This document shows, piece by piece, positions 1-60,182 of a DNA stretch of 64,000 bases; within the stretch, counting starts at the first letter, position 1; every line of letters starts with the position of its first letter. Under the pieces are notes generated by a model. That model was given only the letters and a program-made list of their open reading frames with translations, was not told where the DNA came from and did no database searches. Source of the stretch: Azolla caroliniana (lineage: Eukaryota; Plantae; Polypodiophyta); the NCBI GenBank assembly GCA_043228905.1, contig JBHGNT010000007.1, forward strand, positions 14,570,001 to 14,634,000, in the 5' to 3' direction. Made by a program: the position numbers and the translations under genes.

Positions 1-148
1 AGATCATCAAGGAGGATAACGAAAGGTCATGAAAACCCGATGTAACGGTCATCCCTTCTGATATAAATGGGGCAGCCCCAAACAGTTTTAGGGATCCAGG
101 TTCTAGGAGAAGGAAACTATGTCATTCAGAGTACCGAAGCTCTCTCTC

Positions 149-182
<34 letters not shown>

Positions 183-821
183 GTTGCGGCCATTGGGTGT
201 AACGGCTCTCTCTGTCGTTGTTGTTGCCGTTGCCGTCGTCTACAACCACTATCTATTGCCCGTCTGCCATCGTGGTCTTCGTCTACCGTCATTGGTTCTT
301 GGCCATTGTCATCTCCGTTGCCACCGCTATCGTGTGTAGTCGTTGACATTGTCGTCGTTGTCGGTTGTCGCTATCACCTACGATTCTGACGACGTCATCG
401 GTTGAGTAAACGAGAGAGCATACATGTGCTTCTACACTCGTACCTAGCACGTAAGGCATCGATGCTCGGCTAAGTTTTTCTGTCCTTTTTGTCTTTTCTT
501 TCTTCTATCTTTTGAATTACAACATGACTTCTAGACGAAACCATAAGGAAACACACAAAGAAATTATAAGTAAGGAGGAATATTTAGATGTCCTTAACCG
601 TTTAGTTGAAATAGAAAAATGGCCGAAAGAGATTGAAGCCGAAAAATAGAAAGATAAGGAAGAAAGAGAACTGCTTATTGCTGAAGTAGCGAAAATTAAA
701 GTAGACACCGTGAACCTTCAAAAAAAATTTCCTTGAGACATCTAGGTAAGATGGTGAAATATCTTCCCTAGAGGATATTAAGGATGAGATAAAAAAGGTT
801 AAGGATGAGGTTTAAAGCGAT

Positions 822-1283
822 ATGGAATCAGCAAAAACTGGGTGGGTTGATGTAGTAAAATATAATATTAAAAAAGAACTAAAGGATGAAAACATTGTAA
901 ACACTACCCTTGAGGAGGAACAAATGTGTCAAGCTCGACGCCTAAATGAACTACTTATTGGGCTCAAGGAAGGGGCGTCTCCCGACGAAGATGCACAAAC
1001 ATTAGGGAAAATGTTGGGGTACGAAGCCCTACCAATCACTAAAACTTGGAGGGTAGGACGTGACTCCGCTAGGAAAAGAGCTTTAGTCCTTCAGTTTAAG
1101 GACTCAGAATCTAGAATTGCCTTTTTTAAAAAGAGACCCATTCTTCGAGGACTGGGCGGGGACCCTATCTCCCTCGATGACAACCTGACCAAGATGCAAA
1201 TTGAGCATCGTAAAACTTGTATGCAACGAGTCATACAAGCTCGTAAAGAGGGGCATCGTTGGTTATCTAATAAGACGCCTTGA
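822..1283 (+). pseudogene. LINE-a ORF1 fragment (coiled-coil plus RRM-like type)
   Basis: Motif order as in L2/CR1-type ORF1p; upstream part 460-820 frameshifted. Confidence 0.7.
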
Positions 1284-1459
1284 AGCTACCCACATGGTTA
1301 ACTCCTTCTGGGTGGCCCCATGCCCCATTGGTGCAAACCATAGCTTCCTATACTTTGAGCTAAAATATGGTAATTCCCACGCCACCAACTCCAGTCAACC
1401 AAACTATCACACCATAATACACTTCACGCATTAGCTCGCTGACATCTACTCTCAACATG

Positions 1460-4084
1460 TGTAGAGAATATGCGGAATAATCTTCCGCCACAACCGAGAC
1501 TTACATCACTTAATGATAAATAAACACAGTAAAAATGGAGAAATGGAAGTACACAAACAGAAGAGAATGCACAGGATGTTAGCGTGGAAAACACTAAACG
1601 GAAAAAACCACGGGAGCCCACAGACTCCGAACTATCACTATGTAAGGAGAATACAATAGGGGAACATAGAGGCAACGACCTCGTGCTCACAATCTTCGCC
1701 TGGTGGCGGTTACAACAAACACTCGCTCTGTCTCTCTCTTTGTTTCCCTCTACTACGCTCTATACAACAGTTACACCAATAACTCTATACAACAAATAAT
1801 GACAACAACAACCAAGAGTTTGCCCTAGGTCATATTTATACTAATATGACTTTCGGGCTATTTACAAATATAGCCCCAATGGGCTCTCTGGAACATATTT
1901 ACATATATGTCCCTTCATCTGGTTCTCACCAGGCCTTCATCATCCAGTTCTCATCGGGCCTTCATCATCCCATACGGAGGGACCGAGATCCTAACAAACT
2001 CCTCCTTCACTCCGGCATGGGATGCCTCGTCAGTCTGATCCGCTTCCGACATGCGTCCAACTTGCCGGGTGTCAGCACCTTGGTAAGCATATCTGACCCA
2101 TTGTCCTCCATGTGGATCTTCGTCAACCTGAACTCTCAATCTTTCACTCGCTCCCGAATCCAGTGGTACCTCCGTTGGATGTGCTTCGTCCTGGAATGAT
2201 ACGCTACGTTCTTCGCAAGGTGGATGGCACTTTGATTGTCCCAGTAGAGCCAGTATTCCTCATGCCGGATCCCTAGCTCTCCGATGAAGTCCTTCATCGA
2301 CAGTATTTCCTTCTCGCTCATGTGATACAATCTCTTGTGCCACAACTCATTGGCAGTGTCGGATGCCACGTTCACTTCTTCCCAGCATCTCCGGGCATTC
2401 ATCAAGTAAAGTGTGTTGAATTTTTAGGCTTGAGCCACTATTAAGCTCCCTTTGTAGAACTTCATGACACCGTTCCGGATGCTACCTGTGTAGCCTTCAT
2501 TATCTAGCCGACCGGCTGATATAAGGTTCAGTCGAACCTCCGGAATGTGTCGTACATCCTTCAACAGCAACTTGCATCTAGTTGATGTCGTCAACAACAC
2601 ATCTCCTATGCGGATAATTCGGCATGTCCCTTCATTCCCCATCCAGACACAGTCGTGCTCACCGGTTGTGTAGGATGAGAAGCATTTTTGGTCCAAGGTA
2701 AGGTGGAACAACGCTCCAGAATCGACAACCCACATTGTCTCGTCGCCGGCAAGGTTCAACTCACTCTCCTTGGTGATGAGCATCACCTCCTCTTCACTTG
2801 CCGCGATTGCCGTCGTTCCCTTCTGGTCTGGTCCTCTCCGGTCTTTGTCGTTCCTATCCGGTGACCACTTCGAATCGGTACTATCGGTTTCCTTGTCTTT
2901 CAGGAATAGCCAACAGTTCTTCTGGAAGTGCCCTGGCTTCCCACAGTAGAAGCAAGTGGGCCTTCCCCTTGACTTTGACCATGTCCCCGACTTTTCCCGG
3001 TTCTGGGGAGTCCGGTTCCTTTGTCTTCCGCGTTCTGATTCGGTAAGGAGCGCTTTGGAGTCAGAGATCGTATCCTTGTCTTTCTGACGTGCCTCCTTAT
3101 CTAGCAAGCTTGACTTAACTCTTGCTAGGGATAGTTGTTTTCCTTCCGGCCCGGCGTTGCCTAACGTGACAACTGATGTATTGCAGCTATCTGGGAGGGA
3201 ACCAAGCAGGAGTAGTGCTACTACCTCATCGGAGAGAGGTACTTCCAACGAGGTTGCCTGGTGTATTAGCCCCTGGAAGGCATTCATGTGCTCCGCCATA
3301 TTAGAGCCATCTTGGTACCGGAGTCTCACTAGCTTCCGAAATACCGAGACCCGATTAACAACATTTTTGTTCTGAAACACAATGTTGATCTTGTCCCAGA
3401 GCTCATGAGCCTTGCTCTCTTCATTGAATTTGTTGTACACGCTCATGTCAATGAAGCACCGGATGTACGCCGTTGTCTTTATGTGCATCACCTCCCACAC
3501 TGTGGCATCGATCTTGTCCGGTCTCTTGTCTCTGAACTAAACCGGCAACCAAAGATCTTTGACCACGAGCATGTCCCTCATCTTCGACTTCACACTGAGT
3601 AGTTGGAGCCGGTGAGCTTGAACATCCCGCCGAACGATTCTTCCATTTTCTGTTTTGTTCGCTCTGATACCAGTTTGTAGAGAATATGCGGACTAATGCT
3701 CGGCCACAACCAAGTCTTCGATTACTTCGTTGAGAATTATAACCACAAAAATGGGAATGTGGAGATAGATGCAAGTACACACAGAAAAACACTGAAAGAG
3801 AGTACACAATATGTTTACGTGGAAAACCCTAACCTGGAAAAAACCACAGGAGCCCACAGACTCCGAACTATGACTATGTAAGGAGAATACAACAGGGGAA
3901 CACAGAGGCAACGACCTCGTGCTCACAATCTTCGTCTGGCGGTGGTTACAACAGAGACTCCCTCTGTCTCTGTCTCTCTCTCTCGCTCTCACCAGGTCTG
4001 CATTATCCGGTTCTCATCGAGCCTTCATCATCCGGTTCTCACTGGACCTTCATCATCCCATCTGGAGGGACCGAGATCCTAACA
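1460..4084 (-). mobile_element. Ty1/Copia B (Tnt1/Tork-like), internally deleted (INT and RT lost)
   Basis: LTRs 1460-1996 and 3676-4084; TSD ACATG (1455-1459/4085-4089); PBS TGGTATCAGAGC (rc 3661-3672); PPT rc at ~1997-2010; gag-PR ORF 2424-3500 (CFYCGKPGHFQKNC, WVVDSGA) joined to RNase H end (HSRTKHI). Confidence 0.92.
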
Positions 4085-4321
4085 ACATGTTCAAGCCCAT
4101 CTCTCCTCTTTTGATTCTTTCTTTCCCTTAGAGAACCTCACTATAGAACTCACACACATCCTTCAGTCAACAACAATTAGTAGCTTCCCATACACGAAAG
4201 ACTCTGATCATAGTAGAATAGGATCTATGTCACAGAACAAGTGGTGTGATGAGGATTGTTGAGAGTTGTATAGACAACTTATAGTGTCGCAACTTAGTGG
4301 CACTATTTCCTCAGTAAAGAG

Positions 4322-6595
4322 ATGCACAAGATGACACGTCATAAAAGACGAGCTTGGGAAGCATCTCAATATTGGGAACTCTACCATATGATCATGAGTA
4401 GGGACCGCTCCCTTGCATGGAAGAGACTATGGGAACCGAGACCACAAACACCCAACGAGGACCCCAATATTTGGCACACATATATCGAGAGACTCTACCA
4501 TGTCCCGGACCAACCATGCATTCCAATGCCTTCCACACCTCGACCTACCATGGGGACACTTTTCACGACCTCTAGGGTCACGAAGGTCATAAAGAAATTA
4601 CAACATAGGAAATTCATTGACCACACAGTATTGCGAGGCAAGCACATCATATATGCTCGAGAACGCCTAGCCCCCCTTCAAATTCTAATCTTCAACCGTG
4701 CCCTCGCCGAGGGTTTTCCACCACAATGAGCCATGAACACAGTTGCCCCTATACATAAAGGAGGGGACCCAATGGACCCAAATACATATAGGACTATTAT
4801 GATAGGTCATACGCTCGCTAAACTATATGGTGTAGTAATGGAAGCGGAGCTCAGTGATTATATGAAAACATTAAGTCTTCGAGCACCTAAGCAGGCTGGC
4901 TTTAGATGAGCCTTCTCCACTATTGACCATATCTTCACACTTCAGTGCTTAATTGACTAGACGAAGGCTCATAAGAAGAAACTATATTGTTGCTTTGTGG
5001 ACTTCCGCAAAGCCTTTGACACAGTTCCTAGGGAGAGGTTGTTTGATAGACTTAAGAGCTTGGAGATACCAAATGACATGATCTGGTTCATTTATGCCCT
5101 ATATGAGCAAGTCTCTGGGTGCATAAGATGCCCATGTGGCCTATCCGATTGTTTCACTAGCACCATTGGTGTGAAACAGGTTTGCCCCCTATCATCGCTT
5201 CTTTTTGGGATCTACATTGATGAGATCACTGATTTTATTGCTCTTAAGGGAGGCAAGGGAGTAGCTATTGGGGATACGCAAGTTAGTCTCTTACTCTATG
5301 CATACGACATTGTCTTGCTCTTGGAGTCGGAACACGACCTACAAAAGCATCTTAATGCCCTAAATGACTTTTGTACACAACGAGGACTAGTAGTGAATCT
5401 AGTGAAAACTAAAGTCCTTATCTTTCATACATCGTCCCGAGTTAGGAGTAAATGTCACCTAATCATCTCTCATAATTTAGTTGAGGTCATGGGACCATAT
5501 GTATACTTGGGAGTCACTTTTAGTGCTCACTCAGGTAAATTCTCGATGACCCAGGCAGCCAAAGATAGGCTAACAAGAGGGTATGCATCCCTCTCACTCT
5601 TAGAGAGACAATGTCACCAGGCATACTTTCAAGAGCCATGGACTAAGGGATGGCTCTTCGACTCATTAGTGACCCCTTCACTCATGTATGCATTAGTAGT
5701 ATGGACTCCAGGTCTACCATCTTTCATGTGGACGCAATTAGAGAGACCTTTGGTGACGATGTTATCACGTCAACTTTGAAGCAAATCGACAGTACCACAT
5801 GACATTATTAGAGCAAAGTTCAGTCTACCCCCGATGTTAGTAGAAGCACTCTTTCAAGTGGTAGTTTCTAGTCATCAGATACATAGTCAACCACAAGATA
5901 GGATATCCCGTCGAGCCTTTGAAGCCTCCCGATCTCTACATGCATCTGGAGACACTAGCTCTTGGTATAGAATTGTAGTGAGTTGGCTACTTGCAAACGG
6001 CATAGACATTAATAACCTACCTCCCCTTAAGTACAACCATGGGACCGTTCAAACTCTAATCTCTCATGAAGGACATAATAAAGTGATATGCCAAGAAATA
6101 TGGCAAAATTACACTCGATATAAATGGATCACCCCACGAGAATCATTCCCATCGAAAATGTTGTACTATTAGGAACACTTCTTGCACTTCTCTAAGTTAG
6201 GTTTTATTACACAACCAAGATATCTAGTTACATTCTTATCAAATGCACTAAGGGTGGCCATTGGACAACTTAGGATATCATCTCACCAACTTGAGATTGA
6301 GAATGGTCGGGCTAATAGAGTCCCTAGAGAGGAAAGGCTATGTAGGTTATGCCACATAGAGATAGAGGATGAGTATCACTTCACATGCAAGAGCCCAACT
6401 TATGCCAAGATACGGGTAGAATACCAAGACATATTAGGACCCCCTCCCACCCTCTCCAAACTATTAGATACCCCGAGTGTAAAGAGACTAGGTAGGTATA
6501 TCTTAGAACTAAAACAAGTAAGGGAGAATAAATTACAAAGTGTTAACCATAACCCTTTTACTATTCATCAACATGTAACTAGTGTAATTTTTTAG
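4322..6595 (+). pseudogene. LINE-a ORF2 reverse transcriptase plus C-terminal Cys/His domain, multiple stops
   Basis: ORFs 4322-4729, 4997-5779, 5834-6172, 6182-6595 carry consecutive RT and C-terminal motifs. Confidence 0.85.
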
Positions 6596-7369
6596 GAACA
6601 AGGGGAGATGATGAATGTGGATACACTTACGCCGCTTGGCCTCTCCCTTGGGGAAGCAGAAATGCAAATAACAACCAAACGCCCTTGGATGTTGGGCTTC
6701 AAAACAAGTCGACGTGGAGTAGAAAGATTAAGAAGATAAGGGAACGTGAGCTACGTCGACTAGAAGCTATGGTTGGGGTATATCTTACATTGGGACCACG
6801 GGCCACATCCACATCACAACCCTTTGACCTCCCGCGTCTCTTCGACAGACTTGGATGGAAATGAAATTAGGTCTGGTTTAATATTTTTTTCATTGTAGAA
6901 CATGTTTTTTATATAGAACAGGTTTGTTATTTTCTAAGAACTATTTAGCTTTAACTCTATTTTTATCTTATTTTTATTTTTACTTTCGATGAATGGGTAA
7001 ATATCCCATTTTGTTTGTAAACCATTTGTCTCATGGGCCAAATTTGGCCTTAGAAGACATTAATATATCTTTCTTTCTTCTTTCTTTCTCTCTCTCTCTC
7101 TCTCTCCGATTACGACTGACGACCATACTCCGGAAGATTGGTTGTACTCCCTGCGCATCACACGCACATTCTCACTAATACTGTTAATCTATTCTGTTGT
7201 CTTGTGTTGCAATTCTGTCATATCACGCTATAACGGTGACCTACGGCCGTCTCACTCATGTCCCTCTCTATTATGTCTACGGTCTGCGTGTACGCAATGC
7301 GTGGGATATTCCTCTCCTTTGCTTGATTCCTTAATGTCTACACATCCATGCGGAATTCCATGACATCTT

Positions 7370-7385
7370 TGGTTAACCCGACGTG
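7370..7385 (+). promoter_or_regulatory. Primer binding site complementary to tRNA-Trp 3' end
   Basis: TGGTTAACCCGACGTG vs plant tRNA-Trp complement TGGTGAACCCGACGTGA (1 mismatch), 4 nt after LTR end. Confidence 0.8.
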
Positions 7386-7438
7386 GAAAGGGCTCGCAAA
7401 GGAATCTGAAGATACGAGGAAGCGAACTCGCCGAAGCA

Positions 7439-8634
7439 ATGGTGGTGGCGAGAGACCACCTGGTTATCGCTCGCGAGGGCACGAGTGCCCTTGACAGGGT
7501 CATAGGAACGACGGTCGACAAGATGGGCCGGTTTAATGGGAAAAACACCACGAGTTACTTGGAGGCCTACAAGGCTGAGATGCAGATGAGGAATATTCTA
7601 GAAGATAGACGGTTGACCGAGTTTCCTCAGGTCATAACGCCAAGCATCCATGTGGAAGTGCTTGAGGTACAAGTGAACTATCGTAATTGGGCAAACTTTG
7701 AGGGACGGATCTTTGAATGGTACAACTTCGAGGACTCGCTCCGGTTGTCAAAGGAAGATTTCATGGATTGGGTTGACAGCCCTGGCAAAGGTCAAAACGC
7801 ATCGATGCTCCTTCAGGAGTTCAAGTCGTGGTTTGCACAACTCTCCACATTGGACCATACCGTGCTTGACACGAATAAGGTTCTGTTGTTTGTTAAGTCG
7901 TTCGACTTGTTCAACCGCGATAATGTGGGTCTCCTCTTCGAGACGAATGAAGGGCTCACGGTTGACTGGGTTGTGGTCAAAGGAGTATGTGGCACGATCG
8001 ACAAACGGCGAGACTAGAAAGAGGAGGGTTCCTCGACAATCGGTTTGACGCCAAAGACAAGGGTCAAAGCTAACGCCGACCCGAACAAAAGAAATGAGGA
8101 AGTTGCCCAAGTTGGGCCAAACTCCGACCAATGTAGCCGTGGGACAATCCGGGGATGCGCCTCTGGTGGAGCTGACGAAGATGGTGCGTGATCTCCAGAT
8201 TGCTTAGGCCCGAAGGAGCGACGGAGACCAACTGCGCGATCGACATCAGACAATCAACCAACAGTGCTTATGGTGTGATGTCATCGGCCACGCCCAGAGA
8301 GACTATGCCGACTTTGGGGAAGCACTCAAAAATGACGTGGTGTACCTTTGGAATGGCACACTGCACGCAAGTAACATGCGCAAAATGCTCGAAGTAAACA
8401 CCGGACGAGGCAGCATGAAGAGGTTGATGGAGGAGGTTGCGGCGTGGCACATCGAGGCTATCCACCACTCGGCCTCAGCCGGCATCCGCGTGGGTACAAA
8501 GGCCATTAGCACTGATGCAAACCCCGGATTTTACCCGGTGGTACTAGAGACCTTCTCCAAAGTGAAGTTGAAGAAGGGAGAAGCAGACCGCACCGAAAGA
8601 CGTGTACACGATGTCATCGGATGGAGCGATCCGG
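7439..8634 (+). pseudogene. Gypsy A gag region (resumes at 15831)
   Basis: ORFs 7439-8017 and 8337-8634; homologous to gag at 34480-35150. Confidence 0.75.
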
Positions 8635-11600
8635 TGTTGTGTGATTCTTCACACACTATGTAAAAATATAATGAATTTATTATTTTAGATTAGATTAGTG
8701 GCTTGGTATTAAAAGATAGACATCTTCAATACCTTCAAAACACATTTTACTACATATAAAATGGACAACTGCATATCAAGTTATGTGAATATGAAGTTTG
8801 AGAAGATAGGAAAAATAGAATTGTGAAATACCTCACACAGATAGGAAATTTTAGAATCCAACTATATAAGAAGATTGAGAACCATTAGTTCTCATCTATG
8901 TGTTTGGAGCATAAAAGGAATGGTTGGACTTGGGTCACTTTGTTTAGATGGACATATGTGGCTAAGTCACCGGATGTGGCTAAGTTGTCCAAACCTGTCG
9001 GTGATGGAACTTGAACCGACTGGCGAAGGAACAAGAACTGGTCTGCGATAGAGCCGGCAACCGGCAACTGGACAGAACCGGCAACCGACCGAACCGGTAA
9101 CGGAACGGAACCAGAAACGGTTGGCGACAAAACCGGCGACAAAGCCAGGAACCAACGATGGAACCAATCGGGCGGAGACCGAACGGATTGAGATGGAAGG
9201 ATGATAGGATCATGCGGTGAATTAAAGTAAAGTAAAGTAAAGTAAAGGCCATGTGGACGCATGCAACTGAAGTTGGAGGGCATTCATAAAGTAAAGGTCA
9301 TGTGGAAGGCATGCAAAGAAAAGGTGGAGGCCATGGAACTACAATAAACGCCATGTGAGACGCATGCAATGGAAATTGAGATGCAAACTGAAGTTCCTTC
9401 ATGCAAGTGTATTGGTGGGGACAACACTAGGAATCCTAGTTTTTTTAGGAGTTCTATCCCCTCAAGGAGACTAAAACCCTAATTTTTGGGATCAAAGCCA
9501 TATCACTCGTATAACCCTAATTTTCCTTATGAATGCCATATCTCATTGTTGAGAATCAAGCTCAACTTGGTCTAGTGTGTGAACTCACCTTGAGAGTGAA
9601 TAGACACTCCAACGGTCAAGAGTCACCATTCTGTCACCTCTTTGTATTTTAGCATTTAGTATGAGTCATAGAATCATATTCTATGACACATAACTTATGA
9701 GCTTTCACATTCCCCATGCTCCATGAGTCTTTTAATTAATGAAGAGAGAGGGTGACTATATAAGGAACCCTCCTCCCACCTATATAAGGACAAGGCGGAC
9801 GAGGTCTGACCTACGATAATAACTCCCAATTTCGGCCGCAAAACGGAAGCCAATGAGGAACCTTCGCAAGAAGGGGGAGCTTCCACTCCGGCCCGAGCCG
9901 TCAAAACGCAACCGAATGCGGATATTGCGGAAAGCTCGGCAACCACAAAGAAGAGTGCCGAAAGAAGATGCGTGAATCGGCTTCCACAAGCCGACAACTC
10001 ACGAATTACGTGCACAATTCTGACTACGAAGAGTATAGCGGATTGTATAGGCACAGCTCCGACTACGAGGATCGTGGCGGAATGTTCATAATGAAACATA
10101 GAGCAAACTCTATGTCGGCCTCTACCTCAACTAGTTCCCTCAATCCGGAGGACGTATGGTTTGTGGACTCCGGAGCCTCAAACCATATGACATCTCATAA
10201 AGAATGGTTTCTCGAACTTCGAGAGCCGGAGCGACCCGGTTATGTCGAAACCAGAGATGACACTACGCACCCGATTCGGCACATCGGCATTGTTCCATTC
10301 GGAAAAGAAGGTAAGAAAAATTACATTAAAAATGTCCTGCATGTATCGACCATTACGAAGAATTTGGTCTCCGTCGGCCAAATTGTAGAGCAAGGGATGC
10401 AAGTTCGATTTAATCAAGGCGGTTGCTTCATCGAAAAAGAGGGCCAACTCATCACACACGGACGAAGAGAGGGCTGAATGTTCATTTCGACTCACACGAG
10501 ATGAAATCCGCCATGTTCGCAAAGGGCATGAAAGCCGACTCCGACATAGAGTTGTGGCACAAGCGAATTGGCCACATCAATCTCAACAAACTCAAAGCAA
10601 TGAAATCGAAAGGAGTCGTCATCGGACTCCCGACATTCAAAGAGAAGGAGATTGAAGGTGTATGCAAAGCATGCCAATTCGGCAAGCAACACAGACACCC
10701 ATTCCCGAAAGAGCAGAATGTGAGCAAAGGTCTACTCAACATAGTCCATTCCGACGTATGGGGACCGGCGCAGACGGCTACATTCGGCGGATGCCCATAT
10801 TACATGCTCTTCATCGACGACTTTTCTAGGCACACTTGGATCTATCCGATGCGGCAAAAGAGCGAAGTGTTGGGACACTTCCAAAAATTCAAGAATGAAG
10901 TCGATAAAGCCACGGGCCGACATGTACGATGTCTCCAATTGGATGGCAACAAGGAGTACTTCTCGGACGATTTCACGGCGTATCTCCGAAAGGAAGGAAT
11001 TCGGCGAGAATTCACTTGCCGACACACTCTGCAACAAAACGGAGTAGCCGAGCGCAAAAATCGGCACATCCTCGAAGTAGCGCGGGCCATGATGAACGAG
11101 AAGCATATGCCCAAGTCATATTGGGCTGAAGTTGCAAATACGGTCGTCTACCTAATGAACCGGTCACTACGCATGAAAAATACTTCTGAAAGAAGCAAGA
11201 CTAATCACACACTCGGATATTCGGCGCAATAGCGTACGTGTACATCCCCGACGAGAAGTGTCAAAAGCTTGACCCGAAGTCGGAGAAATGTATCCTCGTA
11301 GGATACTCATTGGAGCAAAAGGGGTACAAGTGCTACAACCCCTCAACTCGAAAATCTCGAGTAAGTCGAGACATCGTTTTTGACAAGTCTGCATCCTGGT
11401 ACACACTAGAGACAACTTCGACTCCGACTCCGCTCGACCCGGAATCCACCGAACAAGAGATCGAGGATGAAGATTGCCCTATGCGCATGATGGAAGAAAG
11501 GCCGATCACGACCCGACTGAGCGGACCACAAGAGCCTTTGAGCGATCAAAGCACATCACGACCTAGCCCGAAGATGGACAAAGGCAAGGCGAAAATGGCG

Positions 11601-12208
11601 GAATACGCAGACGATCGCGTCGACGACGATGAGTCGACTCACTCACTCCACAGTGAGTTCAGCGACTTCGATGTTCCAATCAGAGCTAATAAAGCCCTCA
11701 TCTCTGCAAATGAAAAGCTCCGCCGATCCACTCGTGAAAACAACCCCATAAGCCGATTCGGCTACAACGATTATATGGCGTACCATTACGCCTTTATGAT
11801 GAAGGTAGTGACAATACAGGAGCCGCAAACCTTTTCCGAAGCCGCGAAAGATCCGCGATGGATCGAGGCAATGAATGAGGAGATGCAGGCCCTACGGAAG
11901 AACGAGACGTGGGATCTCGTTCCCACCTCCCCACACAAAAAGGCGATCGGATGCAGATGGATTTACAAAGTGAAGTACAACGCTAACGGTTCTGTCAACC
12001 GCTACAAAGCGCGACTCGTAACGTTTCACTACGCACAAATGCACGGAGTTGACTACGAAGAGACCTTTGCCCCGGTGGCAAAGATGACGACGGTACGAAC
12101 CGTAATTGCGTTTGCCGCGGCGAAACGGTGGCACCTCCATCAAATGGACGTCAAGAATGCCTTTTTACAAGGCGAATTAGAAGAGGTGTACATGATACAA
12201 CCACCCGG

Positions 12209-12986
12209 TGTCGTGAAGAATTTCGGCTAGAGGCGGAAACCGGGAAACATTGGCTACATCGGCGGGGTGCAGCGTGTGTGCTCACCCATGTACATTTAGT
12301 GTGAATAACGAGGGCGCCTTTATGGCGCCGAAGAGTAGTCAAGTCGGGACAGACGATCCCATGTAAGTCAGGATTTATCCCACATTGTAACGCATCCCTC
12401 TCCTTGTTCTATAAAAGGAAGGGAGCGCCCTTTGTGAAGGGGTTGCCCATTTTGCGTTAGAGGGTATACCGTTAGATTTAGAGTTAGTAACATTTCTTCT
12501 TCTTCTTCTTCTTCTTCTTCTTCTTCCCCCTTCGTGTTCGCTTAGGGTTTGCTTCAGCTCGTCTCCTGCGCAAGACCCTGCTCGGCGGGACAAGCCCGTG
12601 AGCTCCCCGACCGGCGGCTTGGCAGCTGACGACTACTGTAACCTACCTCGGTCCGGCTCGAAGCCGGGAATGTATTCTTCCTTTTATATATATACATTTG
12701 CGTCTGTCTGTGTATATTCGCTTCTCCGTTGGTGTCGGGTGCTTCCCCTTTCCTGCGTTTCCTGTACATAAGGGCGTGAGTCGGGTCGGCATGTGTGTGT
12801 ATGTGTGTGCGCGAGTCGATGTTAAGCGTGTGCTCCCTCTCTTTCTCTCTCTCCCTTCGGTCGCTTCCGATGTGCTTCTGGGATGCCCCGGAAACGGTGA
12901 AGCACAACTTCCTACATTCCGTCACTCCCTAGTCCAAGACCCCCGTGGTCCCGCCTTTCTCCACGCACGCGCGTAACAACGCGACA
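12209..12986. mobile_element. Gypsy-type solo LTR (778 bp) inserted in Copia C RT
   Basis: TGTCG...CGACA; TSD CCGG (12205-12208/12987-12990); removal restores QPPGF; contains (CTT)n at ~12496-12525. Confidence 0.88.
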
Positions 12987-13806
12987 CCGGCTTCAACTCA
13001 AGCACCCATCTGAAAGCTATATGCCGACCCAAGAAGCCACTCTACGGCCTCAAGCAAGCACTGCGTGCTTGGCATTCGAAGATAACGCAATATCTTCATC
13101 AAATCGGCTTCCGTATGTCAAAATCGGACAACTCCCTCTACATACGAAGAGATTCCGCAAGTCTTCTCGTCATCATCTTATATGTGGATGACCTAGTCGT
13201 TGGAGGTGAGCATCTCGTCGAAATCAATAAGGTCAAATCCCTCCTTTCCGACAAGTTCGAGATGACGGACATAAAGGAGCTCTACTACTTCCTTGGCATC
13301 GAGGTAATTCGGACTCCGGCCGGAATCATGATCTCTCAACGGCACTACATTCTCAACTTGTTATACAAGTTCGGTATGGCTGAGTGCAAATCCGTCGCAA
13401 CCCCACTCGATTGCAATCTCAAACTGGATGCGAACTCTGACACCAAAGCGTGTGAGCCGACTCAGTATCGGCAACTCATCGGGAATCTCATCTACCTCAC
13501 GATCACTCGACCCGATCTTAGTTATCCGGTCGGTCTCCTTAGTCAATTCATGCAAACACCACGTGATATTCACTTGGATTGCGCTAAGCAAGTTCTACGA
13601 TACGTGAGCGTCACAATGGATTGCGGCATCCTCTACAAGACCGCGATGCCAATACGCCTGAAGGGGTACACAGACGCCGATTGGGCCGGCTACAAAGCTG
13701 ATAGAAAATCAACCTCCGGATTTGTTTTCTCCCTCGGCAGTAGAGAAATATCCTGGAGCAGCAAAAATCAACCAACCGTCACTCTTTCGAGCACAGAGGC
13801 GGAATA

Positions 13807-14558
13807 TGACGGGAACTCAAGGCTCCTTATGTCCAACGCTTGGCCACAACCGAGATTCTTTTCATACACAGTAAACGGGAAACAAATGCATAACACAAAG
13901 GAGAGAAAACAAAGGTAGACAGGATGTTTATGTGGAAAACCCCAAACTAGGGGAAAAACCACGGCAGCCCACAGGCTGCAAACTGTCACTATGTAAGAAT
14001 GTACAAAACAGTGAGTTCACGGAGGCAACGACCTCGAACTCACGATCTTCGCCACAGGCGGCGGTTACATCAGAGGCAGCGATCTCTTTCTCTCTTTCTC
14101 TCTCTCTCTCTCTACAACGTTACATACTCTCTCTTCTTCTTGCACCAGCAAGAAAATGACAACAACTCATACTATTAGTTTGCCCTAACTCATATTTATA
14201 CTAATATGACTTTTCGGCTATTTACAAATATAGCCTCGATGGACTATCAAAAAACATATTTACGAATATGTCTCTTCATCCGGTTCTCCGTAGCCGGGTA
14301 CTCCTCATCCGGTCTTCACCGGGTCTGCATCATCCAGCCCTCCGTAGACGGGTACTCCTCATCCGGTCTTCATACCGGGTCTGCATCATCCGGCTCTCCG
14401 TAGCCGGGTACTCCTCATCCGGTCGTCATACCGGGTCTGCATCATCCGGCTCTCAGTAGCCGGGTCCACCTCATACGGTTTCGGCCTCGGCCTTGGCCGA
14501 GTTTGTTCATCGGCACTGTTCTTCTCCCTTCCCATCCGGAGGGACCTGTCTCCCAACA
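13807..14558 (-). mobile_element. Copia-type solo LTR with 54-bp tandem repeats, inserted in Copia C RNase H
   Basis: TGACGGG...CCCAACA; TSD GAATA (13802-13806/14559-14563); removal restores EAEYRGAA; homologous to LTRs of Copia B and to 41373-43085. Confidence 0.9.
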
Positions 14559-17500
14559 GAATATAGGGGCGCGGCAGTGGCCGCATGTGAAGCCATATGG
14601 CTCAAAAGGATACTCAAGGATCTGGGTGTACCCATCAAGGATCTGACTTCCCTTTACTACGACAACATGAGCAGTATCTATCTGGCTCGGAACCCGGTGT
14701 TCCACACGCGGACAAAGCACATCGAAGTGCACTATCACTTCATCCGAGAGCGCTTTCTAGCTGGCGATGTCGACCTACAACACATTAGCACCAATCTTCA
14801 AATGGCCGACATCTTCACTAAAGCCTTAGGAGCCGACAAGCTATGGCAATTCATGACTGATCTCGGATTGACGATCCCTGACCTGCCAAGCTTGAGGGGG
14901 AGCACTGAAGACATTATGCAATAACGTGTGGATTCCGCAAATCATGCACACTACGCAAAGCCATGAAGAGCCAATCTACCGCGCAAAGCCGCGAAGAAAG
15001 ACGCAAGCCGAAGCACAGACTTCGCAACTACGCACAACGCAAGCTGGAGCACGGATTCCACAACTCCGCATAAACGTGAGTCGATGCGGACTCCGGAACG
15101 CGAGTTGAAGCGGATTTCGGATACCATCTGAAACTGACCCGACTTGCGCTTGAGGGGGCGTGTTGAGAATCAAGCTCAACTTGGTCTAGTGTGTGAACTC
15201 ATCTTGAGAATGAATAGACACTCCAACAGTCAGGAGTCACCATTATGTCACCTGTTTATATTCTAGCATTTAGTATGAGTCATAGAATCATATTCTATGA
15301 CACATAACTTATGAGCTTTCACATTCCCCATGCTCCATGAGTCTTGTAGTTAATGAAGAGAGAGGGTGACTATATAAAGCACCCTCCTCCCACCTTGTAT
15401 TGTGTTGAGTCTTTCTCCTTTGTTAATATACTTTTACTTTGTGTATTCTGTGTGTAGTATTCCTTGCCTCTCTCACTCTCGAGCTCTCTCTCTCATACAC
15501 ACACAAAACTCACATCTCTTCTACTTCACAAGAATCATATCTGATTCTTTACACTCATGTATAACCCTAATTTTCCATACGGAAGCTATATCTCGCAAAA
15601 ACCCTAACCCTATGTTTTTTCTTTTCGAAGCCTCATAATTCCTAAACTTTTATAATCCGAATCTCGGGATAGATTGTAATTTTTCTCTTTCTTTACTAAT
15701 AAAATTTATCAAACTTTGTCATATCAGTTAATTCTTAATACAAAAACACACGAATTTGATATCCTCTACTCGGAGGCCACGGGGTCCTGCCTCAAGTTCA
15801 CATGTCTTCGTCGTATTTTCACGACACCGGTTGAGGAAAAAACCGGCTTTGTAGAAGCCGGGTGCCAGAACTACAAGGTTCTGGTCGACAACAAGCGGGT
15901 CAGAAAGACCAGAGGAGTGGGCCCTTCGAGGAGGTATGACACCTAGAGCAAACCTAAGAAGAGCGATGTTACTCCGGTTGGATCTCAAGAAAGAGAAAGG
16001 GGAAAGGTTCCAAGCTTCCGGTTAAGCTCGAAAATCGAGAAAACGACGGACCTACGAAAGGTCTTGGAGGAGCGAATCCTTGATAGTCGCGTAGAACTCA
16101 CAATGAGAGAAGTGCTAGGCATAACAAGGAAAGAGTTACACAACGGCATCTTGGATCTCGTAAAAAGGAAACGGCTCGCGACAGAGTCAGAACCGGTGCA
16201 ACACTGCTCGACGAGCTGGTCGCACAGGTGGAAGATACGCGCGACTACACGAGTCAGGGAGGAGTTACACGGGGCTTGCCCGAATGTTTGAGTAAGGCTT
16301 GGTGATTTCAAGATAGACCAGTACTTTTTCGTGTTAGAGACATCCTCCCATCCGGTAATCCTCGGAGAACCATACATCACAGCATCGCGAATGGAAACCA
16401 AAGTGTTGGACAATGGTTCGGCCTATGCGAGGGTGAAGAGTCAGGACGGCCATCACTCCATTTTGTTCCTGGTAGTACGACATAACCATGAGTGTAATAG
16501 GGACACTCTCGACAATGTAGCTTGAGAGGATTTTTAAAATGGCTATCAAGGCATGGGGCCACGATAGTTCGAACGACCGGAGCAAACCCCACAACTGTAC
16601 TATAGGTAGGAAAATTTTGTTCTCCGACAACGGAGGTTGTACATAACCGATATTAATGGCCGGAACAAGAAACAAGTCGAAGGGCGCTTGAAAGCGTGCG
16701 GAGCCTTTGGCCACGATGATGAGATTGGCAACGTCGTGGAGGCGGTCTCATTCGATGACACCCTTGGGGAGATCGAGAGGGTAGTAGAAAGGGTTCTAAG
16801 TGAAGACCATGCCATATCGGTTAATTCAGTTGAGATGTATGAAGTCATCGTGAACTTCGAGAGGGAAATTGGGGCGCATCGACCACCCGCATGGACACAA
16901 AGTACAAGACTGTGGACCGGGAGGTGAAGCCAGTGTGGCTCCCTTGCCAGAGGGCAACTGGGAACGAATAAAGGGGGTCTCTACCGACCCAAGCTTGCGA
17001 GATCCGGCCGGCATAAGACACCGGTTCACCGACAAGACGCTATGAGAGGTGAAGATCGGTGGGGGTGGCTTCCTTCTACCAGCCGAAGAGGACTGCTTTA
17101 TGAGGGTGCTCGAGAGGCACAGGAAAGCCTTCGCATTCTCGATGGTAATCTTCACGGGACCGCACGTGACGTGGAGTCTCTAGCGGAGGCCAGAAGATGT
17201 GGACCAAGCAACGGTGAGAATGGAAGAAGCGCAAACCAGGAACAAAGCCCGGTTCGACAAGACGCACCAACTCCGACCGAGGAAGGCGATTGGGTGCTAG
17301 TCTACAACAACAGTCTCAACAACCAGCATCGGTCCATGCGTAAGTTTGCAAAGCGTTGGTTCGGGCCATACGTACTCACCAGTGCGAACAACAACGTAAC
17401 ATACTACCTCGCGGAGCTCGACAGGACCAGAATAGCGACGCCAGTAGCAGAGGAGCGGATAAAGGCCTTCAAGAAGCAGCACGAAGCGGAACCAGACCCG

Positions 17501-17943
17501 GCGTTGGGGATTGAAGGCCACATTTCGAACGAGGAGGACGAGTAAACGCTAGCCCGAAAATCTTCCACTAAACTCACTACCTGTCACATGCCAAAGGATG
17601 TGCAGTTTGATGGAGATGGATGTCGTCAAGATTTCAGGCCATAAGGGGAAACATAGCCAAATGCGTGTGAACGCGGTTGTGCACAAGTGCACCCCCTTTT
17701 GTACTAACATGTGTAAATACTAAGTAATGATAGGGTTTTGGTGATTACTAGGAAATGAGGCTTTAATAGGTGCTCTAATATGACGCAGGTGGAGGAGAAA
17801 ATCAAGAAGAGCATCAAGCAGGATAACAAAAGGTCATTAAAACCTGATGTAACGGTCGTCCCTTGCGATATAAATGGGGCGGCCCCAAATTGTTTTAGGG
17901 ATTCAGATTTTAGGAGAAGGAAACTCTGTCGTTCAGAGTACCG

Positions 17944-17946
<3 letters not shown>

Positions 17947-18007
<61 letters not shown>
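17947..18007 (+). repeat. (CT)30 microsatellite, LINE-b insertion site
   Basis: Perfect dinucleotide run directly 5' of the LINE-b ORF1 remnant. Confidence 0.95.
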
Positions 18008-18009
<2 letters not shown>

Positions 18010-21000
18010 AGGAGAAGAATATAGAAAGCATAGATGTCTGAGAATTGAAAGAACGTGAACGACGATCAAAGAACATTGTCGTCCGTGGGATTAAAGAAGA
18101 GAGTATGGAAACACTCGCATCCCTTGGAAAGGCCATTGGTGAATTTTTTAGCATGCATTATGGGATGTCAGATGTGAATGTATATGGGGCACACCGAGTT
18201 GGGAAACATGGTGTTACTCGCTCCGGAGAAAGGCCTATTGTATGCACAATGACAGATGATACAAAGCGGTGGATCATACTCGAAAATAGTTGGGTATACC
18301 TCAAAGGTACACAATGCTTTGTGAGTGAAGATCATACTATCTCACAACAAAATGCTCGTCGTAAAGCATATGAAGAAAGATTGAAAAACAAGGTTAAGAA
18401 TATGCCTAAAGATGGAAATGTAGGCAAATAGGGACACGTGATCTATGAGACTAACCCACGCCTTTTACGACTATGCTTTTGGAATTGCAATGGATACCCA
18501 TGGAATGCGGGATTTGGCATAGAGGAGTTCACCGATGACTCGGATATCACACTTCTTGTTGAAACATGGGAGCATGATACTCAAAGGATTCAAGGTTTAG
18601 GAAACTATAATGTACACTCTTTGATATGGAAGAAAAATCCAAGACAAAGAAGAGGACAAGGAGGGGTGGCATGTTTGATTAAGAAGGAAATAGAGAAATA
18701 TGTGTCAATCATAAAAAATGATGAAAATAAAGGCTACATATGGCTCAAAATAGAAACACCTAATGATATGCCCACTTTTGTAATTGGATGTTACATTCCT
18801 CATCAAGATTCTAACTTTTATGCTTGTTTGGATAAAGATCAACCGTTTGCCAATCTAGAAGATGATATTGCTTATTTCAAATCCAAAGGGGAAGTTATTA
18901 TCTTTGGTGACATGAATGCTCGTACAAGAAGTTTCCAACTTGATTCACAAGAATCTTTCATGCCACATATCTCAAGGATGCAAGAGGATAGGAAAATGTA
19001 TAACCACTCTTCTAGCGATGAAAAAGATCCAGACCAATTTGGGAAGTTACTCCTACAAATGTGCAATAGTACCGGATTGCTTTTTGCAAATGGTATTTCC
19101 TTATGGCCCAACACTAATGGTTTTACATGTAGAAAACACAACGGAAATAGTGTGATGGACTATGTGCTACTTTACGAAGGCATTTTGGATCGTATACATA
19201 AATTCTCACTTGGTGAATGGACACCGGAATCCGATCATATGCCCTTATGTATTGATCTCAAATGTATGCATAGGTTTGATTGTGAGAAGGCTATTGAAGA
19301 TAATAAACAGCCGCACTTGAGCATGAACCTTAAGCGAGCACCCATGTATTCCAAGATGGTTGAGGATATGTTACAAATGACAAAGATACAACATGGTGCC
19401 ACACTAGAATGCAAATGGGAAGCTTTCAAGGAAGTCATTCTCTCATGTACAAACAAATGTTTTTCGACCAACCGCACATCTTGGAAATGCACCAAGAAAC
19501 TTAGGAAAAAATGGTTTGATAAAGAATGTCGTGAAGCTCGAAAGTGCCTTATGGTTTTGGATGTAGTTAAGGATAAAGAGAATTACCAAAAGCATTTGCA
19601 TGAGTATAAAAGGCTTATTCAAAGAAAGAGAAGAATATGGGAAGTTACACAACAATTTATCCAAACGCAAGAGAAAGCACATGCATGTGCTAAATTTTGG
19701 GGAAATCTAAAGGGAAAACGTGTTAAGAGTTATGGTGACTTAACTCTTCATGACTTGTCTATGCATTGTAAGAATTTATATGTTGCAGGAAAGATGATGT
19801 GTTATGGTTCTCTTTCACATATGCCTCCCTTCTTTACAATTGAAGATATATGCATAGGACTTAAGAAATTGGCCTCTCGAAAGGCAAGCGATCTTCAATG
19901 TATAAAGGCTGAAATGCTCAAATGGATGGGAAAGGAAGCACATATATGGATAAGAGATATGTTTAATGATGCATTGCAACATGGTATGCCGTACGATTGG
20001 ACTACAAATTGGATCAAACCTTTACATAAAGGTGGAGATATAAATAATGTAAACAACTATCGAACCATTATGGTTGGCTCATTAATGGCAAACCTATTTG
20101 GATGTATAATGGAATCAAAGATAAGTGTATGGGCTGAAAAAAGTGGTAAGAGAGCTTATGGACAAGCTGGCTTTCGGAATCACCATAGCACCATTGATCA
20201 CCTTATCACCCTTCGAGTATTAATGGAGGAAAGTCGCCTTAGAGGTAAAGGTTTATATTGTTGCTTTGTAGAATTCAAGAAAGCTTTCGATATGGTACCT
20301 TGTGAGCATCTTTGGAGGCGAATGGAAGAACTTGAGGTGCCAAGTGAATATATGCTTGCAATTTCCTAAATTTATGAGAAGGTTATATTTTTTGTGCGCA
20401 TGAGAGATAAACTTTTAGATTTTTTCAAAAGCACTATTGGTGTTAAGCAAGGATGCCCACTCTCACCAACACTATTTGGTCTATGCATTGATGATTTGGA
20501 AGAAATGGTTACCAAGTTTGCAAAGGAAGAATGTGTTGAAGAAGTTGCCATTGGGAATGTTGTGATTATGCTTTTGCTATATGCAGATGATGTAGTGCTT
20601 TTTGCAAATACTTTAGGAGATGCACAAAAGCTTATGAAGGCATTGGAAAAAATTTGCATGCATACTAAATTAAGTGTCAATAGCTCTAAAACAAAGATTA
20701 TGCTTGTGAAGAGCCAAAAAGGAGATAAACCATGCATTATGTACAACAATGAGCCACTTGAATGTGTGGAAAGCTTCAAATATCTTGGCCTTGAAGTTCC
20801 TTCAAATCATAGATGGAATGAATGTGCTACACGCCGCTTAGAGGTGGGCAAGCGAGCATACTATGCATTTGAGAACACATGCAATCTTGGAGATATTAAG
20901 TGTTGGGTCCTCAAGAAATATCTTTTCGACACTTTGGTGACATCGGTTCTTCTCTATGGAGTGGAAGTATGGGGCGGTAGCATCCCTAAATCTATGTGGA

Positions 21001-21866
21001 AAGAGTTTGAAAATGTCCAAAAGCATTTTCTTACCAAGTTAAGAAACAAACGCCCTCCTCCTTGAGACGGGATCGCTTCCCATTGAGATCATGGCCATTC
21101 AAAGGGTTGTTGAATACATGCTTAAGGTTCAAAAAAGTCCCTCACATCGACTTCCTAGAATTGCGTGGGAAGCAATCAAAAAGATCCAAAAGACGCATCA
21201 AAGCAAAATTTTGTGTTCCGGTTGGATACAAGATATAGAAAAATGGTTTGGTAGATGGGATGCAAGACACTTGCTTCATGATGCATCATTAGATTCCTTT
21301 GTAAATGAGCCATTTTTGCAACGCCAATGTATCATGACATGGGACAAATGTGGAGGCTCACGCTTCACGCATTATACTACACATGTTGCACCTAACTACA
21401 AAACCATATTCTTTGCGGAACGGGGAAATCGTACACATCCATACATGTTAGAGCCCATACTATTATCTACCATTCGAACCATTGCTTCCATGCGACTTAG
21501 CTCACATGCATTGCGATGTGAAACAGGGCGTTGGGGTACAAGTGATGAGAGTGGTCGGGTATGCACACTTTGCCCTAAACAAGTTCGCGAGTCTCAGTAT
21601 CACACTTTGATACAATGCTCTGGCTTTGATCATATTCGACCATGCTTTCCACATCTCTTCAATCGAGCCCAATCTTTGCATGAATTCCTCTCACAACCAC
21701 AATGTGCACTCTCGATTGCAACATTCATTAGTAAAGTTCTTGAACATCAAGAGTCACTACTCACTTTCACACGTATCACGTGAAATGTAATATTTTTGGT
21801 CTCATAGGTCATATTTGACCTCTGAAGACGATAATATAATCTATCTATCTATCTATCTATCTATCT
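18008..21866 (+). mobile_element. Non-LTR retrotransposon LINE-b (RTE-X/L2-group-like), 5'-truncated within ORF1, ORF2 nearly intact
   Basis: ORF1 C-terminus 18045-18431 (RRSKNIVVRG, HRVG, RPIV, VSED); ORF2 APE motifs (WNCNG, ETW, GGVA, GDMNA, DY, SDH); RT (QAGFR, GVKQGCPLSP, LLYADD); C-terminal RLSSH.L..ETGR..CTLC; (TATC)n tail ~21839-21866. Confidence 0.92.
18438..21783 (+). pseudogene. LINE-b ORF2 (APE-RT-Cys/His domain), one stop at ~20367 and a frameshift near 21050
   Basis: ORFs 18438-20369, 20394-21065, 21091-21783. Confidence 0.9.
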
Positions 21867-22251
21867 CCGATTACAACCGACGACCGAACTCCGGAAGGTG
21901 CATCCTCTGCTCACGTCAGACGCCCACTTGCTCCCGACTAGAGGATCATCACTCTGTGTGTGTTTACAGTAGATCTCGAAGCTCTATTCCCGGCTCAGAC
22001 CAGTTGTACTCCCTACGCATCACGTGCATGTTAACTACTATTGTTAATCTATTCTGTTTTCTTGTGTTGCAATTCCGTCATATCGCCCTGTAACGGTGAC
22101 CTACGACCGTCTCACTCCTGTCCCTCTCTATTATTTCTACGGTCTACGTGTACGCAACGCGAGGGATATTCCTCCCTTTTGCTTGATTCCTTGGTTCAAG
22201 ACACCTGTGGTCCTACCCCATTTCTACGCATCCGCACGGAATTCCGCGACA

Positions 22252-58021: not shown

Positions 58022-58849
58022 ATGCTTGGGTTTTGCCCCCCCCCCCTACCATTTTAGCCAACGTCGTCAATTGGTTACCAAGTCCGAACATTTTCGATCG
58101 TGGACATGTCATGAGCTCCATGAATTCCGATTGTTGGTATTCGCCACATACTTCAAAAATTTATGTTGACTAGGCATTGGAGCACATTACATCCAACATA
58201 TTATTTCACATGGCCTCCCCAGCGACTCACAATGGCGATGAAGAGAAACATTATAGGTTGATGGTTCGACAAACTTTACATGGAATGTTTTTCGGAACAT
58301 CGACCATTTCCTCCCATCTTTTGCGATTCTATCAACCTCCTTCACATTGGAACGGAAACTCTTAACTACCACTCATGCCTAACAACACCCTGGTATTGAA
58401 TTATCTAGTACTCGCAGTTCTCATCGGAACATACTTGGTACTTGTTCTTGGAGTAAAGAAAATATGCATAGAAATGAGGGTACCATGAACATCCTACATA
58501 TTCACGTCCTCATTACCTCCCAAGCTACTAATTACATTCCGAGGGTGATAATTTATCCCCAAACTTCCCATTCTTTTTACAACTTATTTTTTGCAACATT
58601 CTTTTGCCTATTCCATGTTTGATGCATTATTCAAACAAGAATTTAACAATTCGGACTTTTTATATTATCACCACTAGATCCTCTCATGATTAAGGAAGTT
58701 TCATTAAGTATCTACACGTCTTTTTACCTAAAATTTATTTGTTTGGAGGATTGTAAATCATTGTCATCATTCATCTCTCTTTATTTGATTTGGGTGTATC
58801 ACAAAAGTCAAGAATATGCATGATCATTGATCGCCCAAACAAGCTTGGA

Positions 58850-59300
58850 ACACAAGATGCAAAGTACAAAAAACTAATAAGAGCAAAGTCCTCGACATTA
58901 TGCAATGGTTTAAGAGATGGGTAGTAGAAAATCTATTGGACCTCTGGGGTGATGTTATGAAGTATGTGATCATTGAGGATAGGTTACTAAGGGCACTAAG
59001 TATGAAGTGGCAAGATGTTAAAATATCAAAATTCGAATATTACAATGCAAATATTAACAATATTGGACCCAATACAAGCAAAAAATGTTAGGATGTATAT
59101 CCAATCGCATCTCACTACCCACATGAGCCTTTAACATGTCGTCAAACTTGTTCATACAAGTTAGGTGTGTTGTGGTAGCATAATGGCATCATCACACAAA
59201 CATGAGGATAAGCAAGTTGTTCAATGAAAACCTAGTGGAGGTTGAATATCACTTGCTTATCACATGCTCAACTCAACGTATAAGGTAATTGGTGAAAAAT
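58850..59300 (+). mobile_element. Possible decayed CACTA transposase remnant
   Basis: WFKRWV...LRALS...V.KF.YY.AN resembles the TnpD C-terminal WF..V/L..LA/Y.VNG pattern; weak. Confidence 0.25.
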
Positions 59301-60182
59301 ATGATGGCTTGTTAAACAAACATGATAATGCGAACTAGTAACCCCCCTTCTTAAGAAAGAGTCATATACAAGATGGGAAGTTGACCTCATAATAGACTAT
59401 AAAATTTCTATTCTATTCTCTCTCTCATTGGCAACAAATCACACCTAAGAATCTTTAGCCATTTGCAGACCTAATACACACTAATAATAGGTAGAGTACC
59501 TTTTCTTGGGCCATTTATGCCATCTTACAAGGCAGTTAGAGGGAGGGTAATCTCTTTCTCTATATGTCAATGACAACGTTTGCCAGAAGAAAATCTTGAA
59601 TGTGGAGAATCTCTTGTCAATTGTACACACTTGATGGTTTCTTTTGAATTGTATATAAACGGATTTAACCTAGGAAAGAAAATGGTTTCAAATTTCTAAA
59701 ATGGTGAATTGGATTAAAATCATGAATTAAGAGTTCATATAAACAATTACTGATGAGGTATAGACATGTAAGAGTGTAACACGCGTCACGTTTTATGCTC
59801 GATTATAATGAAAAAAGAAACACAAGAAACACACACAATGGCACAACAAAGATTACACAAGATTTAACGTGGAAAAACCCTCAATGAGGGAAACAACCAC
59901 GGGACAAAAGTCCAAAACCAATCCACTATCAAGAAAGAGATACAACACAAAGTACAAGTTCTACTTCTAGATATACTAGAAATATGTAGAGATATGTAGC
60001 ATAATACTACCGACAAAAATGGTACAATAATCCAAAGGGATAAGACTATCTCTCAAGCATATAGTAGAAAAGAAGAGAGAAGAAAACCCGGATAAGAATG
60101 TCCACAAGTCGAAGTAGTAGCCGTGTAGATCTCACGTTGAGTAGCGGAGATGGAAAGAAGATTAAGAGTAGATGAGTCGAGC

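Follow-up and report, generated by a model that had tools for sequence, protein, structure and literature searches.

The 64,000-nucleotide window analysed here, from Azolla caroliniana contig JBHGNT010000007.1, contains a decayed and nested Gypsy element in which each of the two long terminal repeats (LTRs) carries one long interspersed nuclear element (LINE) on the same strand, in the CT tract that follows GAGTACCGAAG. The two insertions, LINE1 and LINE2, represent families that we term F1 and F2. We give a probability of roughly 60% to the reading that these two deeply separated families enter (CT)n at about a hundred times the background frequency, with the sense strand on the CT strand, by means of a nick in the GA strand and pairing of the RNA tail with it. 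The bias itself is a strong preference over many sites; it is neither a strict specificity nor the use of this LTR as a landing pad.

LINE1, LINE2 and the Gypsy LTRs

The LTR parts, the CT tracts and the two LINEs lie as follows.

1..139, + strand: first LTR of the decayed Gypsy, part before the CT tract; 88.5% identical to 17808-17946; starts outside the window
140..181, + strand: CT tract at the LINE1 5′ junction, made of (CT)10, a short (TCTG) stretch and (CT)6
182..7087, + strand: LINE1 (family F1, TTTC tail), with a GC-rich leader and several stops; exact 5′ end uncertain
7029..7058, + strand: 3′ stem-loop motif of LINE1, common to LINE2; fold z -2.49
7088..7105, + strand: (CT)9 following the LINE1 tail
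7106..7365, + strand: remainder of the first LTR, then a site like a primer-binding site (PBS) and gag-like open reading frames (ORFs)
17621..17946, + strand: second LTR, part before the CT tract; purine tract upstream
17947..18007, + strand: (CT)30 at the LINE2 5′ junction
18008..21866, + strand: LINE2 (family F2, TATC tail), 5′-truncated inside ORF1
21800..21829, + strand: 3′ stem-loop motif of LINE2, with a compensatory change relative to LINE1
21867..22251, + strand: remainder of the second LTR

In the first LTR, GAGTACCGAAG at 129 is followed by the CT-rich stretch at 140-181, LINE1 at 182-7087, (CT)9 and CCGATTAC at 7106; in the second, GAGTACCGAAG at 17936 is followed by (CT)30 at 17947-18007, LINE2 at 18008-21866 and CCGATTAC at 21867. 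Both junctions bear out the observation of an earlier note that a LINE sits in the CT tract of each LTR in the same orientation. That note had also placed both LINEs at the same (CT)n site. The tract is indeed shared, but the base of insertion differs, since 9 CT units lie 3′ of LINE1 and 1 lies 3′ of LINE2.

The ORF2s of LINE1 and LINE2 are 33% identical across 485 aa, whereas the LTRs differ by 11.5% (139 nt part) and 13.3% (256 nt part), with a Kimura two-parameter (K2P) distance of 0.126-0.148. Because the divergence between the LINEs is so far above that between the LTRs, LINE1 and LINE2 are, as judged from sequence comparison, two independent insertions rather than one copied insertion, in agreement with the earlier note. 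A single ancestral insertion copied together with the LTR is ruled out by the 33% identity of the ORF2s, set against 87-88% for the LTRs, and by the reverse transcriptase (RT) tree described below. The different 5′ ends, which had been taken as further evidence for distinct families, have no such value, because LINE2 is merely truncated inside ORF1. The supposition that both LTRs belong to one Gypsy is likely correct, with the PBS-like site and gag after the first LTR and the purine tract before the second; the pairing is unproven because the first LTR begins outside the window, and a distance of 12-15% is no proof of a true pair because most LTR paralogs are less than 95% alike to the second LTR.

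The state of the site before insertion was approached with contigs of public runs, which were aligned on a stretch that begins in the final bases of the LINE2 tail and continues into the second LTR, and their loose ends were read. At least 9 contigs of run X1, at least 6 of X3 and at least 9 of X4 showed a loose end of GAAG followed by a CT run. These appear to be LINE-free LTR paralogs with a tract of ∼12 units. Since LINE-free copies of the LTR already carry CT, the tract, on this reading of the contigs, predates the LINE insertions. The filled LTR sites of the window hold ∼30 CT units each, against ∼12 in the empty paralogs, which suggests that the tract was lengthened at or after insertion. 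A search of viral contigs with the LTR junction pattern gave 0 matches.

CT runs beside other copies of the families

Copies of both families were sought in metagenome contigs with a degenerate pattern of the 30-nt 3′ motif, and at least 121 loci were obtained, whose LINE parts are ∼69-100% identical to the window copies. After removal of 2 duplicates and of 10 loci with less than 70 nt downstream, 109 copies were analysed against background windows taken from the same contigs on both strands. Of the 109 copies, 52 had a CT run of 8 nt or longer in the 60 nt downstream of the 3′ motif (F1, 28/59; F2, 24/50), compared with 34 of 4212 background windows; for runs of at least 16 nt the counts were 31/109 and 9/4212. 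The orientation is strict: no AG run of at least 8 nt occurred in these 60 nt in any of the 109 copies, and 50 of the 52 CT runs touched the tail.

At the 5′ side, upstream DNA of 40 nt or more outside the alignment was available at 56 loci, 4 of which were dropped for LINE sequence just upstream. Of the remaining 52, 16 carried a CT run of 8 nt or longer in the 40 nt before the junction, compared with 10 of 1854 background windows, and an older LINE 3′ end lay just upstream in only 1 of these 16. The comparison of 3′-end flanks with background that the earlier note had called for, run here on metagenome copies, hence found CT enriched at both junctions. Tract length was biased too: of the 54 parsed copies in which TC units numbered at least two, 33 had five or more, where 6.3% is expected from background (parsing failed for 8 of the 109 copies). 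The share of copies with CT did not change with the state of the linker, used as a proxy for age (34/70 intact and 18/39 mutated, p 0.84).

The insertion position within the CT tract varies between copies, unlike that of an element with strict one-base specificity. No convincing ordinary target duplication was found in the 43 copies with both junctions readable (19 had none, 11 had CT only, and 13 had short, chance-like matches). Neighbouring downstream LINE pieces were on the same strand in 14 cases and on the opposite strand in 1: a same-strand copy lay within 80 nt across a CT run in 5 of the 109 copies, and further pieces accounted for 9 same-strand cases and 1 opposite. At four loci (L030, L069, L016 and L117) very short 3′-end copies are stacked over CT runs, F1-F2 mixes included, and among them the 3′ motif restarts at a 5′ junction; repeated hits or template jumps may have produced these stacks. 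At L016, L038 and L028, (CA)n runs lie between the CT tract and the truncated LINE 5′ end, and were possibly added during insertion.

Some sites can be compared with an empty or a second filled state. The site filled by the LINE at L043 has its homologue in the Copia LTR of the window, where the CT tract is empty. Copies of F2 and F1 (L084 and L108) lie at about the same place of a small hairpin-like repeat, a possible second case of a shared site, and L095 has a further copy at the contig end with a short CT-rich start. The pair L049 and L055, considered as two families at one repeat site, was left uncounted, the shared downstream sequence being at least partly LINE-derived.

The earlier note had regarded LINE1 and LINE2 as the only LINEs in the 64 kb. 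A third, older and decayed LINE is, however, present at ∼58780-59416.

58780..59426, + strand: third LINE, decayed, 5′-truncated, of another family; left end approximate; tblastn E value down to 1.7e-11

Its 3′ terminus has a (CTATT)2 tail followed by (CT)5, and a short CT run lies near its 5′ end; when its 3′ end was aligned with that of LINE2, the score was above those of 500 of 500 shuffles. The loose but real, oriented (CT)n bias is a property of at least two, and probably three, LINE families of the Azolla window.

Enzyme, relatives, 3′ end and other window features

In LINE1, ORF1 spans ∼524-1283 and the RT with the C-terminal CxxC..H..C region ∼4300-6540. In LINE2, ORF2 (18432-21783) encodes an apurinic/apyrimidinic endonuclease-like (APE) domain, the RT and a C-terminal zinc-finger-like motif, with one stop and one frameshift. 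The depth of contigs aligned on LINE2 climbs ∼19-fold from 5′ to 3′. A high-coverage contig of family F1 (L076:1-5115), which is likely an assembler blend of several copies, has both ORFs intact, with frames of 272 aa for ORF1 and 1249 aa for ORF2. The endonuclease is intact in L076; relative to it, LINE1 lacks ∼815 nt, most of this domain. The endonuclease matches Pfam PF03372 and retains the invariant E, Y, GDxN, D and DH of APE-type LINEs. A structural model (predicted local distance difference test score, pLDDT, 92.5) is closest to the L1 endonuclease (Z 23.8, root-mean-square deviation 2.6-2.7 over ∼220 residues), and the protein is predicted to have a normal APE fold, nearest that of L1. 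The endonucleases of the two families are ∼31% identical. The short loop before the second catalytic Asp, which has a role in target reading, differs between them (FPHGGGE and RKHNGN), and this argues weakly against one shared sequence-reading endonuclease.

The RT matches Pfam PF00078 and, in the PDB, R2 and L1 ORF2; human L1 ORF2 (E value 6e-22) is no better a match than R2. A non-LTR RT, 5′ truncation and a 3′ tail, all traits of APE-type LINEs, are present. ORF1 matched no Pfam family above the cut-off, and the Atlas search with the C-terminus gave only unnamed, mostly animal clusters. The RT tree, rooted at its midpoint, was built from 37 chosen rows among the 180 with enough RT, of 198 examined. 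LINE1 and LINE2 fall in one group (100/98) with proteins of Riccia and Adiantum, beside which stand proteins of Chlorella and Coleochaete, so that the group is one of land-plant APE and RT LINEs with algal relatives. Within it they occupy the two deepest branches, with LINE2 the closer of the two to the Riccia proteins, and they are joined in 0 of 200 bootstrap trees, in keeping with the distinct families claimed before; if inheritance was vertical, the F1/F2 split may be very old.

A C-terminal SSH.L..E.GR plus CxxC..H..C motif, which we take to be a mark of RTEX, is present in 6 of the 6 full-length relatives aligned and in both window LINEs. Plant RTE elements have a single ORF and a (GTT)n tail, and plant L1 elements a poly(A) tail (PMC9033089). 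Ordinary plant RTE and L1 are excluded because L076 has two ORFs and the tails are TTTC or TATC, with no poly(A) tail among the copies listed; a repeat tail in place of poly(A) is in itself not diagnostic, as RTE and algal L1 also have it (PMC3747384). By elimination and by the motif, the clade is probably RTEX, the tree itself being free of labelled RTEX and Tx1 RTs.

The 3′ ends of the two families are 73-78% alike over ∼60-110 nt (window 7029-7069 and 21800-21840), a likeness far above that of the ORF2s, which may reflect either strong constraint or an exchange of 3′ ends long ago. The C-G to T-A change in the hairpin separates the families in 65 of 67 F1 and 54 of 54 F2 listed loci, in a scan whose pattern permitted only Y and R at the compensatory positions. 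The tail is TTTC throughout F1 and TATC throughout F2, with 0-9 units per copy; in 20 of the 101 parsed copies there is none, and the CT run is joined directly. Each unit is one base off TCTC, and both pair in register with GA repeats. When RNA-RNA pairing was used as a proxy, four UUUC units on GA repeats gave -19.9 kcal/mol and four UAUC units -6.6 kcal/mol, and both tails paired better with GA than with CA, UA, UG or GAA repeats. In 9 of 52 truncations the end point falls exactly on the TCTC with which the 3′ motif begins, a position consistent with short stretches of matching CT having served as the join, or with a pause at the hairpin.

In both families the ORF1 stop is in frame with ORF2 (window 18432-18460 and the L076 junction). 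The sequence immediately downstream of this stop complements the 5′ arm of the 3′ hairpin (21775-21811 in the window), with perfect cores of 9 nt in each family. This complementarity is kept though the sequence differs between the families, and suggests a switch between the 3′ hairpin and a long-range pairing with the ORF1/ORF2 junction.

Two Copia elements are nested in the region.

1460..4084, - strand: deleted Copia nested in LINE1, with Pfam gag/Pol matches, an LTR pair and an ACATG duplication at its flanks
9547..15540, + strand: Copia in the Gypsy interior, itself interrupted; right end approximate

The LTRs of the first have a K2P distance of 0.143, with many gaps, and are no closer than the Gypsy LTRs; because the distances are similar, no dating order is claimed. 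The second has an unoccupied CT tract at 15484-15494 in its LTR. Elsewhere, the sole host gene recognised in the window is an intronless family 17 glucanase ORF (56789-58018), whose best named matches are from Adiantum and Ceratopteris (62-66%), ahead of seed plants, and make a fern the probable host. At 41373-43085, Copia-type LTR sequence forms a large inverted arrangement, both arms of which hold 54-bp tandem arrays; it is related to LTR pieces at 13804-14559 and 1460-4084. At the window end, a Copia with long open frames (60182-60284 and 60642-64000) adjoins a (CACCAAGCTT)n array.

Mechanism, rival explanations and known systems

Target-primed reverse transcription is established for LINEs, and under it a sense strand on the CT strand makes the GA strand the primer. 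In the mechanism that we propose, ORF2 would bind the 3′ hairpin of its own RNA, and the endonuclease would nick the strand of (GA)n. Next, the tail, (UUUC)n or (UAUC)n, would anneal in register with three bases of every four, UUUC gaining a G-U pair in addition, and priming would begin at varying points of the tail, leaving 0-9 units; varying tail length and zero-unit copies are what is expected if the priming start varies. The 5′ end would be joined by short CT matches, and the CT tract would often be lengthened during insertion. The Gypsy LTR would have been hit twice as a holder of such a tract, the families being very abundant. The pairing of 3′ tail and target, which the earlier note had suggested, is plausible in view of the in-register pairing in the RNA-RNA proxy, and from it we infer the mechanism. 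The tail data favour pairing-assisted priming, yet they do not separate it from a sequence-reading endonuclease.

Several observations weigh against the proposed mechanism. The loci come from a few metagenome assemblies (nine names in 80 of the at least 121 loci), and their inclusion required an exact match to the motif pattern. No long CT run follows the tail in 57 of the 109 copies, so that, of the claim that plant APE LINEs target (CT)n, a strong oriented bias stands but a strict specificity does not; in 32 of the 101 parsed copies the tail is not directly followed by a TC unit, and of the 43 copies with both junctions readable, 23 have a long run at neither. The 3′ side is CT-richer than the 5′ side (48% versus 31%), as expected if the tail supplies part of the CT. 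TATC pairs only weakly, yet the bias is equal in the two families. As to the empty LTR sites, agreement with the loose-end consensus was 0.55-0.68, X1 and X3 are from the same sample, and X2 had no GAAG-then-CT loose end among the matches listed.

An equal bias despite different tails, the weakly pairing one included, would also be seen if the choice of (GA)n were made by the endonuclease itself, which would read and nick it in the way believed of Kibi, the tails merely echoing the target. The excess of long tracts over short ones, the intact catalytic residues with the predicted fold, and the view that endonuclease cleavage is the main factor in the known cases (PMC3812793) all fit such an enzyme. 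Half of the copies, however, lie outside long tracts, neither a fixed insertion base nor an ordinary duplication is found, and the two endonucleases are divergent; we regard this explanation as unlikely, though by no means far-fetched. It is improbable that the CT tracts were mostly made by insertion at short TC sites, through decay of the tail (TTTC or TATC to TC), copied read-through tails or RT slippage. The CT-richer 3′ side, the longer tracts of the filled LTR sites and the many copies with only 1-3 TC units would be explained in this way, but not the CT runs at 16 of 52 5′ junctions, where no tail lies, nor the tract in the LINE-free paralogs, nor LINE2, with 30 units before and 1 after it, nor L043, whose site corresponds to an empty tract. 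CT-making at insertion likely adds length and does not explain siting.

An indirect bias, in which LINEs repair breaks or survive at CT/GA tracts because these are fragile, open or protein-bound, would account for the lack of ordinary target duplications in the 43 copies, and a passive accumulation has been proposed for Drosophila Waldo-A/B (PMC3812793). The strict orientation (CT 52, AG 0) and the contact with the tail in 50 of 52 runs are, however, unexpected from survival or open chromatin alone, and we consider this very improbable. The earlier note had further seen in this Gypsy LTR a recurrent landing pad. Beyond the two hits in two LTRs of one element, the data run counter to this: 0 of the at least 121 listed loci fall in this LTR family, the paralogs at the site read as empty, and contig depth, when summed, is several hundred times as high at the LINE2 3′ end as at the LTR (which is not a copy number). 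If depth reflects abundance, the families are so abundant that an LTR pair hit twice calls for no special explanation, and a specific landing pad is scarcely credible.

A wider reading may be put forward only tentatively, with the odds clearly against it as a whole. The lineage would be older than the liverwort-fern split and lie outside Tx1 and R1, pick its target by RNA-DNA pairing of the tail with (GA)n, lengthen the tract at each hit and help to build fern CT microsatellites; pairing of its 3′ RNA element with the ORF1/ORF2 junction as well would link the control of translation to targeting. If this is true, a changed tail would redirect insertion. Target choice by APE LINEs is documented mainly in two animal groups, and how it works is described in a review as poorly understood. 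A further lineage, the third and from plants, offers two divergent enzymes and two tails for one target, with L076 as an intact model, and so makes tail pairing versus endonuclease testable, and many fern CT microsatellite markers may adjoin a high-copy LINE.

RTEX elements with short-repeat tails are described from green algae (PMC3747384) and RTE-X from Chlorella (PMC11005252), and 8733 RTE-X hits are given for Ceratopteris (PMC6890710). F1 and F2 resemble these algal and fern elements in having APE and RT, two ORFs and short-repeat tails; unlike for F1 and F2, no target bias is reported for RTEX in the accessible parts of these three papers, and those of PMC5753468, PMC12477816 and PMC5786205 contain nothing on targets. 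No report of CT-biased fern or RTEX LINEs was found in the open literature, with Repbase, Dfam, subscription journals and supplements outside the search. A loose microsatellite bias, obscure target duplications, head-to-tail inserts and occurrence in the green lineage are shared with the Naiad/Chlamys Penelope-like elements (PMC8557442), which differ in their GIY-YIG endonuclease, telomerase-like RT and (CA)n, (C)n and (TA)n targets, where F1 and F2 have APE and a LINE RT. The conserved hairpin with its compensatory change is like the stringent-type LINE 3′ stem-loops of one monocot L1 lineage (PMC3747384). Unlike those, the motif here is shared across families with strongly diverged ORF2s, and its 5′ arm complements the ORF1/ORF2 junction.

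Kibi and Koshi belong to the Tx1 clade. These non-LTR elements of fish insert into TC (Kibi) and TTC (Koshi) microsatellites (PMC3812793), and Tx1 and R1 are named as the two target-specific groups of APE elements (PMC4640811). F1 and F2 are like them in being APE-type non-LTR elements that enter a microsatellite of this kind, here as a bias. They differ in their plant host, in the looseness of the bias, with half of the copies outside long tracts, in their short-repeat tails and 3′ hairpin, and in their green-lineage relatives, Kibi being set apart here by its description and not by its sequence. F1 and F2 look like a system that works as fish Kibi does but is of separate origin.

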